Shown here piece after piece: positions 2,957 to 16,784 of a stretch of 16,784 bases of DNA (the first letter of the stretch is position 1; every line of letters begins with the position of its first letter). Made by a program: the position numbers and the translations under genes. A model generated the notes under the pieces. It searched no databases. It was not told the DNA's origin and saw only the letters and a program-made list of their open reading frames with translations. This DNA comes from Polyangiales bacterium (lineage in GTDB: Bacteria; Myxococcota_A; Polyangia; Polyangiales; Ga0077539), in assembly GCA_044375895.1 (NCBI GenBank), contig JBILLV010000200.1, positions 1-16,784 of the forward strand, given 5' to 3'.

Positions 2957-3637
2957 CTACTTCTTCTCCTCTTCGAGCATCCCGTCGGGCAGGTCGTGCC
3001 CCATGCGACTCTGCTTCGCGCGAAGGTACTCCCGGCTGTACACGTTGACGGGGACGTTCACCGGGACGCGCCGCGTGATGCGCACGCCTTCAGCCTCCAG
3101 CCCGTCGACCTTCGCCGGGTTGTTGGTGAGCAGCGCCACCGAGCGGACGCCGAGCGCGCGCAGCATGTCGGCCGCGGGGCGGTAGCTCCGGAGGTCGTCG
3201 GCGAAGCCCAGGAGGCGGTTGGCGTCGACGGTGTCGTGCCCCTGCGACTGAAGCGCGTACGCGCGGATCTTGTTGCCGAGCCCGATGCCGCGCCCCTCCT
3301 GGCGGAGATAGAGCACGACGCCGGCGCCCGCCTCGGCGATGGCCCGGAGCGCGTGGTCAAGCTGCTCGCGGCAGTCGCACTTGAGCGAGTGGAGCGCCTC
3401 GCCCGTCCAACATTCGGAGTGGGCGCGCGCGAGGACGTCCTCGCCGTTCGCGACCTCGCCGCACACGATCGCGACGTGCTCAACGGGCGCGCATTGGGCG
3501 TCTAACCCGCAGGGGAGCTCGCGAAACACCACCACACGGAAGGCGCCGTACTCCGTCGGCACGTCCGCCTCGGCGTAGCGCTCGAGGGAGCTGGGAGGCA
3601 TCGGGGCGGAGGGGTCCATCGGTGGGGCGCGGAGCAT
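2957..3637 (-). CDS. ribA: GTP cyclohydrolase II (riboflavin biosynthesis)
   Basis: RAHSECWTGEALHSLKCDCREQL matches the RibA zinc-binding motif VHSECLTGD..SLRCDCGFQL. LYLRQEGRGIGLGNKIRAYALQSQGHDTVDAN and LLTNNPAKV are also conserved RibA blocks. Start is uncertain among the ATGs at 3637, 3619 and 3601; none has a clear Shine-Dalgarno. Confidence 0.9.
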   Translation of the reverse strand: MLRAPPMDPSAPMPPSSLERYAEADVPTEYGAFRVVVFRELPCGLDAQCAPVEHVAIVCGEVANGEDVLARAHSECWTGEALHSLKCDCREQLDHALRAIAEAGAGVVLYLRQEGRGIGLGNKIRAYALQSQGHDTVDANRLLGFADDLRSYRPAADMLRALGVRSVALLTNNPAKVDGLEAEGVRITRRVPVNVPVNVYSREYLRAKQSRMGHDLPDGMLEEEKK

Positions 3638-8476: not shown

Positions 8477-11218
8477 ATGAGCATCGAGAACCGCCAGAAG
8501 ATCCCTGTCCCCCGCCGTTCGTTCCTGTGGTCGCTCAACGAGACCTCGGGCGAGATCCTCCTGCACGTCGGTCCGACGGAATTCACCCCGAGCGCCAACG
8601 ACCGCATCGTCCGCGCGAACGAGCGGGGCGGCTTCGAGCAGGCGCCGATGGAGGCGAGGCCCTTCATCGTCGCCCGCGACGGGGAGTACGTCATCCTCAC
8701 CAACCCGATGCGCGGCGACGTGACCGAGGAGTACTCCAACGGGGCGTACATCCCCGGCGGCAACAAGGAGAAGGAGCTCATCCTCGGCACGACGCGCATC
8801 ATCCCGGGGCCCTGCGCCTTTCCGCTCTGGCCGGGCCAGTCGGCGGAGGTGCGGCCCGCGCACAAGCTCGGCGCCAACCACTACCTCCTCGTCGAGGTGG
8901 TGGGCGCCGTCGAGGAGCGCGCGCGGTACTACAAGCTCCTCATCGCGTCGGCGGAGCTGTCGAGCGCCGTCATCGACGCCGGCGGCGACGCCACCGACGC
9001 CCAGGGCGCACCGGAGGCGGGCGCGGCGAAGGTCCCGTCGCAGCTCCGGCTGGGTCAGCGCATCGTGATCCAGGGCCGCCACACGCAGCTCTTCATCCCG
9101 CCGTCGGGCGTCGAGGTGGTGGCGCCCGTCGAGGACGTCGACCCGTCGCAGATGGCGCGCACCGACACGGACGAGGACGGCATCGCGACGCTCCCACCAG
9201 CCACGCAGCAGGAGTGCGCGAAGCTGGTGGCGCAGGTGCGCGAGGGCGTGAGCGCGAAGCAGTTCAGCGTGCTCAAGAACGAGCTGCGCCACCGCAGCGA
9301 CCTCACCACCGGGCAGCGCGCCATCGTGCTCACGGCCCTCGACGCGGCCTTCGAAGAGCGCGGCGCCGCCCTGGCGCCGCGCGCGCGCAAGTCGGGTGTC
9401 ACGGGCGAGCGGCGCGCCCAGGGCCAGCCCATGGACCCCTACGCCCGCCGCGCGGTGGTGCTCGGGCCGAAGGAGTTCTGCATCCTGTTCGACGCCGACG
9501 GCAACCCGCGCATCGTGAAGGGCCCGGCGCGCGTCTTCCCGGGGCCCCACGACACCTTCCTCCAGCGCGGCTCGCGGCGGCGCGTGTACGACGCCTACGA
9601 GCTCGCCGAGCACCAGGCGCTCTGGCTCCGCATCATCGCGCCCATCACGCGGGAGAAGCTCGCCCAGCGCGTGCCGCCGAGCGTCACCCTCGACCGCGAC
9701 GTCTTCCCGCCGGGCCACGAGATGATCGTGCGGGGCCAGCCGACGGTGTTCTTCCCGTTCATCGAGGCGGAGGTGATCCACCCCGAGACGCGCGAGCCCC
9801 ACGTCGGCAACGACCACGACGCCGTCGTGCTCACCGCCCTCGGCGTCGACCAGAAGAGCGGGGTGTACGTCCGCGACCTGCGCACGGGCATGGTGAAGAT
9901 GGTGCGCGGCGAGACCTCGTACCTCGTCGACCCGCGCTACGAGGAGCACGTCCACCGCCGCGTCCCGCGCGAGCAGTGGAACCTCTGGATCGGCCATGCG
10001 GAGCCCCACAAGGTGACCCGCGACGAGGCCGTCGCGACCCCGTGGGCCATCTCGGTGACCGTCCCCAACAACGAGGCCGTGCTCATCACGTCGCGCCACG
10101 GGCGCCGCGTCGAGGTCGGGCCCCGCGTCGCGCTCCTCGACTACGAGGAGAGCCTCACGGCGCTCCAGCTCTCCAAGGGCCCCTCGAAGGACGGCAAGGC
10201 CACGGTGACCACGTGCTTCCTCCGCGTGCGCGGCGGTCGCGTGTCTGACAGCTTCGAGCTCGACTCGGCGGACTTCGTGCGCTTCAAGGTGCGCCTCGGC
10301 TTCGCGGGGCACTTCGAAGGCGAGGGGGAGCGGTGGTTCCAGGTCGAAGACCCGGTGAAGCTCCTGGCCGACACCGTGCGCTCGCGGCTGCGCGAGGTGG
10401 CGCGCGCGACCCCCGCCACGCGGCTCCTCGCCGAGCTCCCGGCGCTCGTCCGCCGCAGCCTCTTCGGCGAGGGCGACGCGCTCCGCTTCGAGGAGAACGG
10501 CATGGTGATCGACCGCGTCGACGTGCTCGCCTCGTCGGTGGCCGACGGCTCCCTCGCCGAGCTCTTCAACACGGTGCAGCGCGAGTCGGTGAAGCTCCAG
10601 CTCCACGACCAGCAGGCCACGCGTCGGCTGGAGAGCGCGCGCCACCAGGACGCCGTCGACGCCGACCAGCAGCTCCTGCAGCGCGGCGCCGCGCAGCGCA
10701 AGGCGGAGACCGACGCCCACGCCGCCGAGGCCGCCCACGCCCTCGCGACGCGCACCGGCGAGCTCGAGGGCGAGCGCCGCGCGACAGACCTCGAGCGCTC
10801 GCAGCGCCACCAGGAGCGCGTCCTGGAGTTCGAGGTGCGCACCGAGCGCGAGATGTCCGAGGCCGCCGCGGCCCGGCGCCTCCGTGAAGCGGAGGCAGCA
10901 GCGCGCGCGTCGGAGCTCGGGCACAAGGTCGCCGAGTCCCACCTCGAGGCCGTCGCCCGCGTCGACACCGAGCGCGCCCGGGCCTTCGCCGAAGCCGACG
11001 CCATCAAGCTCCAGGCCGTCCAGGCCGAGCTCGTCGGCGCCCTCCACGCGGCTGCAGACAGCGAGGTGATGAAGGCCGCGGCCAACAACATGAACCTCGT
11101 CGCCCTCCTCGGCGGCCGCTCGCCCGCGGAGATCTTCCAGCAGCTCCTCGCGGGCACGCCCCTCGCCCGCACCGTCCGCGACATGCGCGAGCGCGCGCCC
11201 GGCGACGACGCCGAGTAG
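8477..11218 (+). CDS. Major vault protein (MVP) homolog, apparently full length: vault repeats, shoulder domain and cap-helix coiled-coil
   Basis: The 913 aa length is close to the roughly 890 aa of human MVP. Block-by-block similarity to human MVP, from memory: [38 protein letters not shown] against [50 protein letters not shown] against [35 protein letters not shown]...[11 protein letters not shown] against EIRLAQDPFPLYPGEVLEK...[50 protein letters not shown] against [45 protein letters not shown] against [41 protein letters not shown] against [33 protein letters not shown]. The C-terminal 250 aa are a long Ala/Glu/Arg-rich helical coiled-coil, like the MVP cap helix. No signal peptide. The opposite-strand ORF 8408..11047 is a low-complexity shadow. 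Confidence 0.85.
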   Translation: [913 protein letters not shown]

Positions 11219-11274: not shown

Positions 11275-12357
11275 ATGCGCGCGCTCTCCCTCACCCTCAC
11301 CGCAGTGCTCGCCCTCGGGTGCGGGGCCAAGACGGGCCTGCTCGTCCCCGACGTGCTCACCACGCCCGACACGGCGGACGTGCTCGACGCGCCCGACGTC
11401 GTCGACGGGCCCGACGTCTGCCAGCCGAGCCCGCTGCCCATCGAGCGCTTCGCCGCGGAGGTGATCTTCGTCATCGACCGCTCGGGCAGCATGGGCGAGC
11501 GCACGCGCACCGGCCTCACGCGCTGGCAGGCCGTCACCACCGCCCTGGCGCGCGTGCTGCCCGCCGTCGACCGCGAGCTGCTCGTCGGGCTGACGCAGTT
11601 TCCCGGCGCGACCAACGGCGACAACCAGTGCGGCGACAACAGCCGCATCGAGCTTGCCCCGCGGCTCCTCAACGCGCGCAACGTCCTCGCGGCGCTCGGG
11701 CGCACCACCCCCATGGGCGGGACGCCGACCTTCGAAGCGCTCCGCGCCGCCCAGACCTGGTACCGCACCACGCCCCCGTCGGGCCGCGTCCGCGGGCGCT
11801 ACCTCGTCCTCGCCACCGACGGCGGCCCCAACTGCAACGCCGCGCTCAACGGCGCCACCTGCTCGTGCACCAACTTCCGCACGGGCTGCAACCTCCCGCG
11901 CGGCGGCCTCGCGTGCCTCGACGACAACCGCACCATCGGCCTGCTCGGCGAGCTCGCCAGCACCAACATCGCCACCTTCATCATCGGGACGCCCGGCGAG
12001 GAAGGCGCATCGCTCCCGCAGACGCTCGACCGCATGGCCATCGCGGGCGGGCGGCCGCGGCCCGGCGCCGGCGCGTCGCGCTACTACCGCGCGGAGGACG
12101 TCGATGAGTTCGCGTCGGCCTTCCGCACCATCACGACGGAGCTGGTGCGCTGCCGCTACGTCACCAACCCCGTCGACGACCCCGCGCAGGTGAGCGTGCG
12201 CGTCGGCGGGCGCGAAGTCCCTCGCGACCCGTCGCGCGCCGACGGGTGGGACTGGACCTCGGTGTCGTCTGGGGAGGTGGTGCTCTTCGGCGCGGCCTGC
12301 GAGGCGTCGCAGCGGGTGGGCGGTGAAGTATCGATCCGTTACGGGTGCCAGCCGTAG
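11275..12357 (+). CDS. Lipoprotein with a von Willebrand factor type A (VWA) domain, a Cys-rich insert and a C-terminal Cys-containing domain
   Basis: Signal peptide plus lipobox: MRALSLTLTAVLALG|C. VWA MIDAS motif VIFVIDRSGSMGE (DxSxS), with conserved Thr and Asp positions in GGTPTFEAL and LVLATDGGPN. Seven-cysteine insert CNAALNGATCSCTNFRTGCNLPRGGLAC, consistent with an oxidising (periplasmic or surface) location. Acidic PDV(L/V)D peptide repeats in the linker after the lipobox. It lies 56 nt downstream of the MVP homolog on the same strand. The alternative-frame ORF 11235..12107 is Arg/Pro-rich and rejected. Confidence 0.8.
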   Translation: MRALSLTLTAVLALGCGAKTGLLVPDVLTTPDTADVLDAPDVVDGPDVCQPSPLPIERFAAEVIFVIDRSGSMGERTRTGLTRWQAVTTALARVLPAVDRELLVGLTQFPGATNGDNQCGDNSRIELAPRLLNARNVLAALGRTTPMGGTPTFEALRAAQTWYRTTPPSGRVRGRYLVLATDGGPNCNAALNGATCSCTNFRTGCNLPRGGLACLDDNRTIGLLGELASTNIATFIIGTPGEEGASLPQTLDRMAIAGGRPRPGAGASRYYRAEDVDEFASAFRTITTELVRCRYVTNPVDDPAQVSVRVGGREVPRDPSRADGWDWTSVSSGEVVLFGAACEASQRVGGEVSIRYGCQP

Positions 12358-12360
12358 CGA

Positions 12361-13323
12361 TCAGCCCGCGAGGGCCGCGTCGATGGCGCGCATCACGTCG
12401 TCGGTGAGCTTCGGGACGACCGCGAGGGCGCCGAGGTTCTCCTGGAGCTGCGACGTGCGGCTGGCGCCGAGGATCACGGTGCTGACGCGGGGGTTCTTGA
12501 GGCACCACGCGATGGCGAGCTGCGACAGCGGGACGCCGAGGTCGCTCGCCACCTTGCCGAGGCGCTTGACCACCACGAGGCGCGACGGGTCGGTGAGCAT
12601 CGGGCGGAGCCACTCCATGCCCGGCAGCGTCGCGCGCGCGCCCTCGGGAACGCCGTCGTTGTACTTGCCCGTGAGCAGGCCCGACGCGAGGGGGCTCCAC
12701 GTGGTGGTGCCGAGGCCGATGCGCTCGTAGAGGGCGGCGTACTCCGTCTCCACGCGGTCGCGGTGCAGGAGGTGGTACTGCGGCTGCTCCATCACGGGCT
12801 TGTGGAGGTGGTGGCGCTCGGCGATGTCCCAGGCCTCCTGGATCTGCGCCGCGCCCCACTCGGACGTCCCCCAGTAGAGCGCCCGACCCGTGCGGACGAT
12901 GTCGTGCATCGCCCAGACCGTCTCCTCCACGGGCGTGTCGGGGTCGGGGCGGTGGCAGAACACCAGGTCGACGTGGTCGAGCTGGAGGCGCTTCAGCGAG
13001 CCGTCGATCGACTCCAGCAGGTACTTGCGGTTGAGCGTGTTGCGCTCGTTGGGGCCGTCGTTGAGCCCCCAGTAGAACTTCGTCGACACCGCGTAGCTCG
13101 CGCGGCGCCACCCGGCCCGCTTGAGCACCCGGCCCATGATCGTCTCCGACTCGCCCTTCGCGTACACCTCCGCGTTGTCGAAGAAGTTCACCCCGGCGTC
13201 GTAGGCGGCGGCCATGCACTCGTGCGCGAGGTCGTCGTTCATCTGCTTGCCGTAGGTGACCCAGGAGCCGAAGGAGAGCTCGCTCACCTTCAGCCCCGCC
13301 CTGCCCAGTCGTCGGTACTGCAT
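12361..13323 (-). CDS. Aldo-keto reductase of the K+-channel beta-subunit-like (AKR6/Kv-beta) type; NADPH-dependent oxidoreductase
   Basis: Colinear similarity to Kv-beta2 throughout: [15 protein letters not shown] against LRVSCLGLGTWVTFG; [15 protein letters not shown] against YESGVNLFDTAEVYA; [19 protein letters not shown] against KKKGWRRSSLVITTKLYWG; [15 protein letters not shown] against YVDVVFANRPDSNTP; ALYWGTSEW against AMYWGTSRW; [15 protein letters not shown] against MTWSPLACGIISGKY; [12 protein letters not shown] against LPQLAVAWCLRN; [16 protein letters not shown] against LLGSSTPEQLIENLGA. Confidence 0.9.
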
Positions 13324-13349
13324 CGTCTCGTCGCTCCTGTCGTGTGCGC

Positions 13350-14546
13350 TCAGAACCCCGCCACCATGCCCAGCGTGAGCGTGTCCTGGCTCGCCGCCGA
13401 CGGGTCCGTCGCGCTCCCCTGATAGAACACCGGCGCCTCGGCGTGGTCGTGGCGGTACTCCAGCCGCGCGCTGAGGTGCTCGAAGGGAGCGTACTCCAGC
13501 GTCGCGGTCTGCGAGGTCATCCAGTCAGCCGCCCAGAAGATCCGTGTTCCCATGGCCGGCGCGCGGTCGAAGAAGAAGTCCGCACGCAGCGCGAGGCGGA
13601 GCGTGTCGGTGAGTTCGAAGCGCGCGTAGGCGGCCGCGGCGCTCCAGTAGTTGACGCCGAAGTTGTTGGGTTCGAAGCCGGCGTTGAGGTGGCCCATCAC
13701 CGTGACGCGTCGCCCGACCCGAACGCGCAGGTACACGTCGAAGAGGCTGCGCCACGCGACCCCCGCCGCGTCGGCCCGGTCGCGCTCGATGCCGCCGAAG
13801 TAGAGGGCGTTGAAGGTGACGTCCGCCGACGGCGCGTACGTGTATTGGAGCAGCACCGACTTGGCGACGTTGTTGTCGACGACGCTGTTCCACCCGTTGA
13901 AGACGCCGAAGGCGACGCTGTGACGCGCGTTGACGGTGTGGGTGACGCGCAGGCCCGTGTGGTAGAAGGGCAGGCCGTAGAAGAGGTTGGAGCGCGACCA
14001 GTTCCAGTTGTCGCGCACGGGCATGGCCTCGGGGCCGATGGGGGAGAGGAAGATGCCCGCCTCCACCAGCCACGCGCCCGCGCGCGCCCCGACGGTCGCC
14101 TGCTGGAGGTACTTCCACACCTCGGATCCAGTGGCCCCGACGCCCGCGAGGGCCCGCCGCGCGGGCTCGGCGCTGTAGTAGCTCTCGGGCGTGTGACCCA
14201 CCTGGAGCGCGAGCCGGCCCACCATCGCGCGGTACTGCCACGACGCGTCGAGCACGACGTTGGAGAGCGTGATGGTGTTGTGCCGGTTGTCGAAGCCGCG
14301 CCAGGCCGTCACCCCGTTCTCGGGGTTGTTGAAGTTCCACTGGTAGAGGGCTTCGACGTAGCCCGCGAGGGTGAGCGTCGCGCGCCCGGAAGAGAGCACG
14401 AACGGAGAGGCCGGCGCCTCTGGCGACGAGGGCTGTGCGGCGGTGAGCTCCAGCGGTCGCGTCGCCTCCGTCGCAGGGACCTCCTGCGCGCTGGCGCCCC
14501 CGGCGAAGAGGAGCGCGGCGATGCCCACGAAGCGATGCCCTCTCAT
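13350..14546 (-). CDS. Outer-membrane beta-barrel protein (porin-like; possibly the BBP2 family)
   Basis: Signal peptide [20 protein letters not shown]|QE, with GGAG 7 nt upstream of ATG 14546. A long body of alternating amphipathic strands rich in Y, W, F, G and N ([59 protein letters not shown]). The C-terminal residue is Phe (...LGMVAGF), typical of BAM-dependent outer-membrane proteins. Its start ATG overlaps the stop of the upstream gene (ATGA). The longer ORF extending to 14684 has an Arg/Gly-rich N-terminal extension and is rejected. Confidence 0.75.
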
Positions 14547-15667
14547 AGAATCTCCACGATGCGCACGCCGACGTCGCCCTCGATGTCCACGAGCTCGCCG
14601 CGCGCGATGGCCCGCCCGCTCGCCCGCACGGTCACCACGTCTCCCACCCGCGCGCGAAACGGCACCACCTCGCCCGCGCGCCACGCGGCCACCTCGGCGA
14701 AGGAGAAGGACTCCCGCGCGATCTCGACCGCGACCTCCACCGGGAGCGTCGCCAGCTGCGCCTCGTCGTCGTGATCTTCCATGAAGGGCACCAGTGCGCC
14801 GCAGAGCACCACCGCGCCGTCGTCGCGGAGCCGCGCCGCGCGCGCGAGCCCGGGAGGATGCCCCATGGCGACGGAGACGTCACCCCTCAGCGTGCCCTCG
14901 CAGAGAGAGAGCCCGTCGAGCGCGATCACCTCCCCCCGCGCGAGCGAGGCCAGCGCCGAGAGCGTCCAACGCGCTCGACCCGCCACCGCCGATGCGACGA
15001 CCGGGAGATCGTCGAGGCGTCGCCAGGAGGGTGAGTCGAAGGCCGGGCGCGCGTCGCGCTCCAACACCACCGTGACCCGCGCGGAGCGCTCGCCGAGCGC
15101 GAGCGTCCAGGGCCACGCGAGGAGGGGATCGCCGTGGAGCGCCGCGATCGCGTCGGGGAGGTCGTCGGTGATGGCGCGGACCACGGGCGGTGGCGCCGGA
15201 TCGAAGGCGCGCGCGAGCAGTCGGGCGGTGAGCGCGGTGAGGGCACCTTCCCAGCGCGGCGCGAGGGGGCCGTGCGGCGCGTAAGTGACCTCGGGCGCGT
15301 CCGGGCCGCCGAGGCAGCGCTGCGCGAGGGAGAGCGCGAAGGGGCGGTCGCACGCCACCACGGCGCACCCGTGGCGCAGCGAGAGCACGGCGGCGAGCGT
15401 CGCGCGGTCGAGGGAGCGAAGGAGCGTCCCGCGATCGGTCAGGGCGGGCGCGTGCGGCTGCGCGACCAGCGGAGCGCCCAGGAGCGCGCGGAGGCCGCCG
15501 TCGCGCTGCGGCCGCGGCTGCGAGGGCGCGCCGAGGCCACGAACGAGTGCGCGGACGAGGGCCACGTCGCGCCGTCGCCAGCGCGGCAATGAAGCGTAGG
15601 GGAAGGGCAGCGCGAGGTCGCTCACCGCGTGTGGCACACGAGAGCGCGCCGCCCGAGACGACGTCAA
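14543..15667 (-). CDS. SpoA (FliN/SctQ-family) domain protein; cytoplasmic C-ring-type component of type III secretion or flagellar systems
   Basis: The C-terminal 70 aa, [70 protein letters not shown], match the SpoA/FliN consensus (...vpvevsvelG.t.ltl.ell.L.vGdvi.L......pv.l.vng..ia.GElv.vdg..gvri.ei) almost position by position. The 300-aa N-terminal region is not recognised. Stop overlaps the start of the downstream beta-barrel gene. The start could be the ATG at 15667 or an internal site. Confidence 0.7.
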   Translation of the reverse strand: MTSSRAARSRVPHAVSDLALPFPYASLPRWRRRDVALVRALVRGLGAPSQPRPQRDGGLRALLGAPLVAQPHAPALTDRGTLLRSLDRATLAAVLSLRHGCAVVACDRPFALSLAQRCLGGPDAPEVTYAPHGPLAPRWEGALTALTARLLARAFDPAPPPVVRAITDDLPDAIAALHGDPLLAWPWTLALGERSARVTVVLERDARPAFDSPSWRRLDDLPVVASAVAGRARWTLSALASLARGEVIALDGLSLCEGTLRGDVSVAMGHPPGLARAARLRDDGAVVLCGALVPFMEDHDDEAQLATLPVEVAVEIARESFSFAEVAAWRAGEVVPFRARVGDVVTVRASGRAIARGELVDIEGDVGVRIVEIL

Positions 15668-15723
15668 GCGTGTCGTGACATTGGCGTCGGTCTTCGCCCC
15701 GCGTGCAGAAGATCTTGCGCGAG

Positions 15724-16784
<1,061 letters not shown>

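Follow-up and report, generated by a model that had tools for sequence, protein, structure and literature searches.

An orphan SctQ-like protein of Polyangiales and its persistent gene linkage to a Hanks-type Ser/Thr kinase

SpoA/FliM-family proteins are known almost only from flagellar C-rings and injectisome sorting platforms, so that a SpoA gene standing by itself raises two questions: what kind of protein it encodes, and which of its neighbours, if any, it works with. Such a gene occurs on a contig of a Polyangiales bacterium (JBILLV010000200.1; “the window” hereafter denotes this complete contig of 16,784 bp and 72% G+C), where it precedes genes for an outer-membrane porin and an aldo-keto reductase on the minus strand and diverges from a plus-strand gene for a Hanks-type Ser/Thr kinase. 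An earlier reading made from the letters alone (the sequence-only reading) had placed the SpoA gene outside any type III secretion system (T3SS) or flagellar cluster, and this is borne out: Pfam and NCBIfam searches found no T3SS or flagellar gene in the whole 16.8-kb contig, and the kinase-linked loci of its relatives, with contigs as long as 534 kb, likewise lack such genes within 10 kb. On balance, and with modest conviction, we favour the reading that the protein is an orphan SctQ paralogue outside a secretion cluster, whose functional partner is the divergent kinase (tail-anchored in complete orthologues), the two together making up a SpoA scaffold with its kinase.

The C-terminal SpoA domain noticed by the sequence-only reading is real and significant: PF01052 matches residues 304-374 with E 4.3e-21 and 75 bits against a cut-off of 23.8, and a second, weaker stretch is also found. 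The gene occupies 14543..15667 on the minus strand, stop codon included, and encodes 374 aa if read from TTG 15667; a start at GTG 15625, giving 360 aa, is more likely because it better fits the starts of homologues, and the public database form is the 360-aa protein from GTG 15625 (P0001), the 374-aa form having no exact match. Four segments can be told apart, all on the minus strand: a conserved N-terminal peptide, PFPYASLPR (15581..15607), with the family consensus RPFPFxxLPR, whose P and L are invariant in our family alignment A1; a FliM-middle/CheC-like domain at about residues 28-204 of the 374-aa form (15056..15586); a SpoA1-like beta domain at about residues 219-289 (14801..15013), which is the second PF01052 stretch and aligns to part of cluster-embedded SctQ; and the SpoA2 domain at residues 304-374 (14546..14758), which gives the best PF01052 stretch, matches PDB sequences and is likewise strongly conserved.

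The elements of the SctQ architecture, an N-terminal FliM-like domain and two SpoA domains, are thus all present, as is the FliM-middle (CheC-like) fold. An AlphaFold model built from the family alignment consists of an alpha/beta domain and, after it, two beta-rich domains of SpoA type, with a mean predicted local distance difference test score (pLDDT) of 72, values of 80-92 in the N-terminal half, and low values of 45-65 in the beta-rich SpoA1 segment; the best Foldseek matches to this model are whole FliM chains in C-ring structures. Among curated families, TIGR02551 SctQ is the best match, residues 139-371 aligning to model positions 40-298 of 300 at E 1.8e-16. A profile of 19 family members matches the solved structures of FliN (1o6a), YscQ-C (3uep) and HrcQ2 (1o9y) at E 1e-13 to 3e-9, and it also matches the solved SpaO SpoA domain. 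For a comparison with secretion-cluster proteins we used alignment A2, composed of seven SctQ genes flanked by SctJ and SctR/S/T within T3SS* clusters of the Anaeromyxobacter type; neighbours of A2-type genes were verified as FliP/SctR, SctS (Bac_export_3), SctT (Bac_export_1), the T3SS ATPase SctN, SctJ (YscJ) and FliO. When aligned by hhalign, A1 and A2 match over 325 columns (probability 99.8%, E 3.8e-30); the T3SS*-embedded proteins open with a peptide PLPF-LP-xSR, which reads PLPFELPxLSR there versus LPFPYASLPR here. Because this alignment with cluster-embedded SctQ covers the whole length, N-terminal peptide included, the protein is, as judged by homology, a full-length SctQ paralogue. 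The question posed by the sequence-only reading, whether FliM or SctQ is the better likeness of the N-terminal 300 aa, therefore has a divided answer: FliM holds for the fold, which is FliM-middle/CheC-like, and SctQ holds for the sequence of the protein as a whole.

The full-length family is small, since a profile search of 1.84 billion cluster representatives returned 208 proteins at E <= 1e-30, and our non-exhaustive literature searches found no description of an orphan or paralogous SctQ or SpoA-domain protein family in myxobacteria. To our knowledge the host phylum is non-flagellated. Like full-length FliM in C-ring structures, the protein has a FliM-like domain followed by a C-terminal SpoA domain; unlike FliM, it has two SpoA domains instead of one and none of the FliM interaction motifs that we looked for: regular-expression searches found the LSQxEIDALL CheY-binding peptide in none of the 19 family members (the N-terminal PFPYASLPR peptide is not CheY-binding) and no conserved GGXG FliG-binding motif (an isolated GG.G occurs in 2 of the 19, at non-equivalent positions), and the FliM sequence families of Pfam and NCBIfam gave no match. 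With FliN it shares a C-terminal SpoA domain that is 37% identical to that of Thermotoga FliN over about 70 residues, and a predicted 79-aa product of the gene, described below, would be FliN-sized; unlike FliN and FliY, the protein runs to 360-374 aa with extra domains, and the CheC/FliY phosphatase motif [DS]xxxExxN(x22)P is absent in 19/19 family members. One candidate phospho-acceptor of the family, Thr153 in a RAVTDD motif, was set aside: it is near-invariant in the close family and replaced in distant kinase-linked members, and we make no claim for it.

The likeness to SctQ (YscQ/SpaO/Spa33/HrcQ), and especially to the SctQ of T3SS* (MXAN_2445 cluster type), lies in the order of N-terminal peptide, FliM-like domain, SpoA1 and SpoA2, and it extends to the position of a putative internal start. 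Known SctQ genes use an internal start to yield a short SctQ-C product that comprises SpoA2 only, and in our family an internal ATG with a Shine-Dalgarno (SD)-like motif stands where YscQ, SpaO and Spa33 begin SctQ-C (PMC4443714, PMC4832279). In the window the corresponding in-frame ATG is Met296 (14780..14782, minus strand), which would begin the 79-aa, SpoA2-only product. An ATG is found 77-89 codons before the stop in 16/17 family loci, and 12 of these 16 have an SD-like GGAG/GAGG/AGGA 4-10 nt upstream of it, where the background frequency within these genes is 7.8% per position. From lineage to lineage the codons and reading phases that spell the motif change (L-E, W-S, R-S and G-A); counted by lineage it is present in about 7 of 11, still far above chance, and the same combination of ATG and SD-like motif occurs in cluster-embedded SctQ genes and in other orphan groups. 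From these motifs, the family is likely to use an internal start; for the window copy such use is uncertain. The differences from SctQ lie in the surroundings: the gene is an orphan without SctK/L/N/RSTUV or SctJ/D nearby, its stable neighbour is a tail-anchored Hanks kinase, and it occurs mainly in Polyangiales and Sandaracinaceae, where T3SS genes are reported to be mostly absent (PMC10196010).

That neighbour is encoded at 15724..16784 on the plus strand (PF00069, E 2e-48), from a start at ATG 15724 or GTG 15772, and is truncated by the contig end. Its kinase motifs VAVK, HRDLKPEN, DFG and TPEFMSPE are intact. Complete orthologues (94% identity) comprise the kinase domain, a Pro/Ala-rich linker and one C-terminal transmembrane helix that ends 2-6 residues before the stop; by this comparison the kinase is predicted to be tail-anchored, the window copy being cut before the tail. 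Loci were searched with the window proteins and their neighbouring open reading frames (ORFs) were clustered, the locus sets being contexts of database homologues, 80 loci with one genome per species, and 80 metagenome loci. The kinase gene is adjacent to the SctQ-like gene in 16/17 genome loci and in 9 further metagenome loci, and adjacent orthologous kinases, 61-97% identical, were found in L001-L006, L009-L013, L015, L018, L042, L086, L091, L094-L096, L098, L100-L102 and L129. The pair is mostly divergent, with one gene inserted in L018 and the kinase downstream on the same strand in L042 and L129, whereas the genes beyond the pair fall into at least six different arrangements. The two partners evolve at different rates: identity is 61-97% for the kinase across loci in which it is 27-77% for the SctQ-like protein, and the ratio of nonsynonymous to synonymous substitution rates (dN/dS) is 0.08-0.18 for the kinase versus 0.40-0.66 for the SctQ-like gene. 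As the latter ratio is below 1 in every comparison, the SctQ-like gene is under selection, yet fast-evolving.

The sequence-only reading had mentioned that the divergent kinase might share regulation with the SpoA gene; this proves to be its most important point. In the window the divergent control region lies at 15626..15771 and measures 56-146 bp, depending on the start codons, and in 11 loci only 99-179 bp separate the first conserved kinase codon from that of the SctQ-like gene. A 9-nt block, GTGGTTGCC, at about 15733-15741 of the window on the plus strand, is conserved between the two genes in 11 loci; it corresponds to GGCAACCAC on the other strand and is GGCAACAAC in some loci, while its flanks and putative translation differ. 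This block may be a regulatory element. A consensus promoter scan of 12200-15900 returned 0 promoters, with no sigma-70 consensus in the divergent region, and a terminator scan of the same interval returned 2 weak terminator-like sites against about 0.8 expected, a result that is unusable.

From the gene linkage and the homology we infer a mechanism of scaffold plus kinase. The SctQ-like gene would have left its secretion cluster while keeping all the parts of SctQ and, in most relatives, the internal start; the full-length protein and the SctQ-C-like fragment would use their SpoA domains to form a scaffold, oligomeric and cytoplasmic, like SctQ and FliM/FliN; and this scaffold would act at the inner membrane face together with the kinase, either as a kinase substrate or as an adaptor or activator. 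Between them the two genes have one control region, no longer than about 150 bp, and they have remained together while their surroundings were reshuffled.

Several observations weigh against this proposal, beginning with its derivation from linkage and homology. The match to TIGR02551 scores 61 bits, under the curated cut-off of 100.8, and in the window copy the SD motif before the internal ATG is degenerate, reading CTGGTG instead of CTGGAG. The kinase family is far larger than the SctQ-like family, with 3489 matches at E <= 1e-60, and kinases of 68-70% identity occur with no SpoA gene nearby in Pendulispora albinea (L089, CP089984.1) and in a Myxococcales metagenome-assembled genome (MAG; L090). 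These two are of the same size as the window kinase, and each has a YfiH/Cu-oxidase_4 gene on one side and a class A penicillin-binding protein on the other; from this context it follows that the kinase does not need a SctQ-like partner, and it hints at a kinase family with a cell-envelope role. One family member, L008, has no adjacent kinase. The linkage could also be in part inherited synteny within one order. Lastly, the neighbour-joining tree does not unite the two kinase-linked groups, which, if real, would represent two independent associations; equally, this could reflect a weak tree.

A wider survey places the gene among several kinds of SctQ relative. In the neighbour-joining tree the SctQ-like clades of Myxococcota coincide with genomic context: one context is kinase-linked, one is T3SS*-embedded, and two others are again orphan. 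The first of these orphan clades, D (L017, L019, L022, L032, L044, L057, L065, L072, L076 and others), has as neighbours two FHA/zinc-ribbon proteins with a further match to the YscD cytoplasmic domain family, a TPR/HEAT protein of 1300 aa, a PilZ protein, PgpA and genes of glycogen metabolism, with no T3SS genes nearby. In the other, C (L016, L020, L043, L052, L055, L060, L063, L079 from Nannocystis exedens, L082, L084 and L085), the neighbours are one or two 1250-aa TPR/DUF3857/transglutaminase proteins, a TPR lipoprotein-like gene and CcmF; at several clade C loci a small gene of 172-226 aa without a family match overlaps the SctQ-like stop codon. GTP cyclohydrolase II is encoded directly upstream of the orphan gene in L084 (9157-9906) and also in the window, at 2957-3637 on the minus strand, 11 kb away from the SctQ-like gene; this is probably a coincidence.

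The taxon labels of these groups differ. The 21 cluster-embedded loci bear the labels Anaeromyxobacter, Myxococcales, Acidobacteria, and unclassified Myxococcota or delta-proteobacterial MAGs; on the kinase-linked loci the labels are mostly Polyangiales, Sandaracinus and Sandaracinaceae, with three Myxococcaceae MAG labels and two unspecific ones (Myxococcota, Deltaproteobacteria); and the other two orphan groups are mostly Polyangiaceae, Polyangia, Polyangiales and Nannocystis, with several Myxococcales, Deltaproteobacteria and other unspecific MAG labels. On acidobacterial MAG contigs (L066 and L070, Pyrinomonadaceae; L075, Chloracidobacterium) SctQ-like genes are followed by SctR/S/T homologues, and because these SctQ-like genes group with myxobacterial cluster-embedded SctQ, T3SS*-like clusters outside Myxococcota are suggested. 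According to a survey of 17 Myxococcota genomes, T3SS genes occur mainly in the 9 from Myxococcales, the rest being Polyangiales, Nannocystales and Haliangiales (PMC10196010), and the known T3SS* of Myxococcus xanthus has its own SctQ (PMC10433427). Taken together, this distribution and the separate SctQ of M. xanthus make a secretion-independent role plausible. We tentatively extend the proposal, as a possibility that we hold less firmly than the kinase partnership itself: in Polyangia, SctQ may have been duplicated and re-used as a secretion-independent scaffold, giving at least three orphan groups with partners of their own (a Hanks kinase; FHA/zinc-ribbon proteins with PilZ; giant TPR-transglutaminase proteins), of which the kinase-linked form would be a C-ring-like signalling platform on the inner membrane, either governing Ser/Thr phosphorylation or governed by it.

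The main rival to the kinase partnership makes the protein a platform subunit that serves in trans a T3SS encoded at another place in the genome, and its gene a scattered secretion gene of which the kinase is at most a regulator. Full-length homology to cluster-embedded SctQ, down to the N-terminal peptide and the predicted internal start, speaks for it; scattered T3SS loci are known in Chlamydiales (PMC3459982), and our view of this genome is limited to the 16.8-kb window. We nevertheless consider it unlikely, as the T3SS* clusters found here already include a SctQ gene, the taxon labels of cluster-embedded loci differ from those of kinase-linked loci, the reported T3SS genes belong mainly to Myxococcales genomes (PMC10196010), no kinase-linked locus has a T3SS gene within 10 kb, and at least two more orphan SctQ-like groups have stable contexts of their own. 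Alternatively, the gene could be a relic, now functionless and decaying, of a secretion or flagellar apparatus since lost, and its kinase adjacency passive synteny. The SctQ-like gene is indeed the fastest-evolving of its block (65% identity versus 79-94% for its neighbours, with a dN/dS of up to 0.66), model confidence is low in the SpoA1 part, and the SD motif before the internal ATG is degenerate in the window; against decay, however, no family A locus that spans the gene has a broken ORF (>25 loci, down to about 30% identity), dN/dS stays below 1 throughout, SpoA2 and the N-terminal peptide are strongly conserved, the third-position G+C content (GC3) is typical of coding sequence, and the kinase adjacency has outlasted several rearrangements. 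We regard a relic as very improbable.

A third rival is the combination that had drawn attention to the locus, in which SpoA protein, porin and reductase would be one system, e.g. an outer-membrane channel and a redox enzyme joined to a cytoplasmic platform. The tight minus-strand string described in the sequence-only reading does exist: the SpoA stop and the porin start overlap by 4 bases (ATTCT-ATGA-GAGGG, at 14543-14546), with GGAG 6 nt upstream of the porin ATG within the SpoA coding sequence; a 26-nt gap separates the porin stop from the reductase ATG, which begins at the 27th base and has AGGAG 11 nt before it; and frame-specific GC3 of 0.84-0.99 supports the three genes, with one reading frame per stretch. 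The overlap and the short gap suggest co-transcription and translational coupling, the three genes probably being co-transcribed in this lineage, and six related contigs (L002-L004, L091, L092 and L097) show the same arrangement. All six, however, form one shallow clade in which the SpoA protein is 65-85% and the kinase 94-97% identical, whereas other kinase-linked members that keep the downstream flank have unrelated genes after the SpoA gene (a PDZ protein, DUF362, a cupin, an extracytoplasmic function (ECF) sigma factor and others). L087 has a 60%-identical porin close to an 81%-identical reductase and a VWA gene, with no SpoA gene in the region, and the porin family has >1196 members, with other contexts such as beside kup and kdpFABC. 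Moreover, we know of no mechanism that would link a cytoplasmic SpoA scaffold with a Sec-exported porin. The three-gene system is thus very improbable: a check of orthologue contexts, which the sequence-only reading had proposed for the unit, finds the trio linked only among the closest relatives (>=65% identical) and its porin-reductase part able to stand without SpoA, so that the functional combination does not hold up. The porin and the reductase are recent, lineage-specific downstream neighbours outside any conserved system, and their eye-catching linkage to the SctQ-like gene is a recent accident of gene order.

Returning to the kinase partnership that we favour, its nearest counterparts are found among Hanks kinases that regulate secretion machines, chlamydial PknD-CdsD and type VI secretion PpkA-Fha1, in which the target is an FHA-domain protein and the secretion system is intact. 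The likeness lies in a Ser/Thr kinase that is coupled, genetically or functionally, to a base component of a secretion machine; the pair described here differs in that the partner is a SctQ paralogue, no secretion genes are nearby and phosphorylation is hypothetical. The needle-less myxobacterial T3SS* is thought to be near the ancestor of injectisomes, and the pairing of a SctQ paralogue with a kinase suggests either an assembly module that has been re-used or trans-encoded, phosphorylation-linked platform variants of T3SS-like machines; it thereby bears on the evolution of T3SS* and on its dismantling in some lineages. A kinase-linked signalling platform, if true, would be a new role for the FliM/SctQ/SpoA family, and the linkage singles out two genes that can be tested together in strains of Polyangiales or Sandaracinus.

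The two genes downstream of the SctQ-like gene are themselves well defined. The BBP2/OmpL-like porin (398 aa; 13350..14546, minus strand) matches PF07642 over model positions 2-339 of 339 at E 2.2e-59 and has an N-terminal Sec signal peptide readable from its sequence. The Kv-beta-like reductase (320 aa; 12361..13323, minus strand) belongs to the aldo-keto reductases by PF00248 (E 2e-70) and scores 342.5 bits over the full length of TIGR01293 Kv_beta, just under its cut-off of 365.4. In Polyangium fumosum (L088, 6001-7182) a 50%-identical BBP2 porin lies between kup and kdpFABC-kdpD, and a K+-related role is possible for the porin family on the basis of this one locus. A K+ theme was also considered as the link between porin and reductase and was set aside, as it would consist of that single locus and a family name.

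The remaining genes of the contig encode a CglB-like VWA lipoprotein, a major-vault-protein-like protein, a metallophosphoesterase, a second kinase, a TetR regulator, the GTP cyclohydrolase II mentioned above, an ECF-type sigma factor and an M10 peptidase. The vault-like protein (913 aa; 8477-11218, plus strand) contains Pfam MVP_shoulder and Vault_3 domains and is collinear with rat major vault protein (query 328-840 versus MVP 275-801, E 4e-16); judged by these matches, it is a bacterial vault-protein homologue. Our literature search found no paper connecting vault proteins with myxobacteria. The gene is 91% conserved in a Polyangiales MAG (L004), where it adjoins the VWA lipoprotein gene, and L091 holds fragments only. 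The VWA-domain lipoprotein itself (11275-12357, plus strand) resembles the gliding-motility adhesin CglB, with 94.5 bits against a cut-off of 200 for NF033757, and in several genomes its gene keeps synteny with the porin-reductase block.

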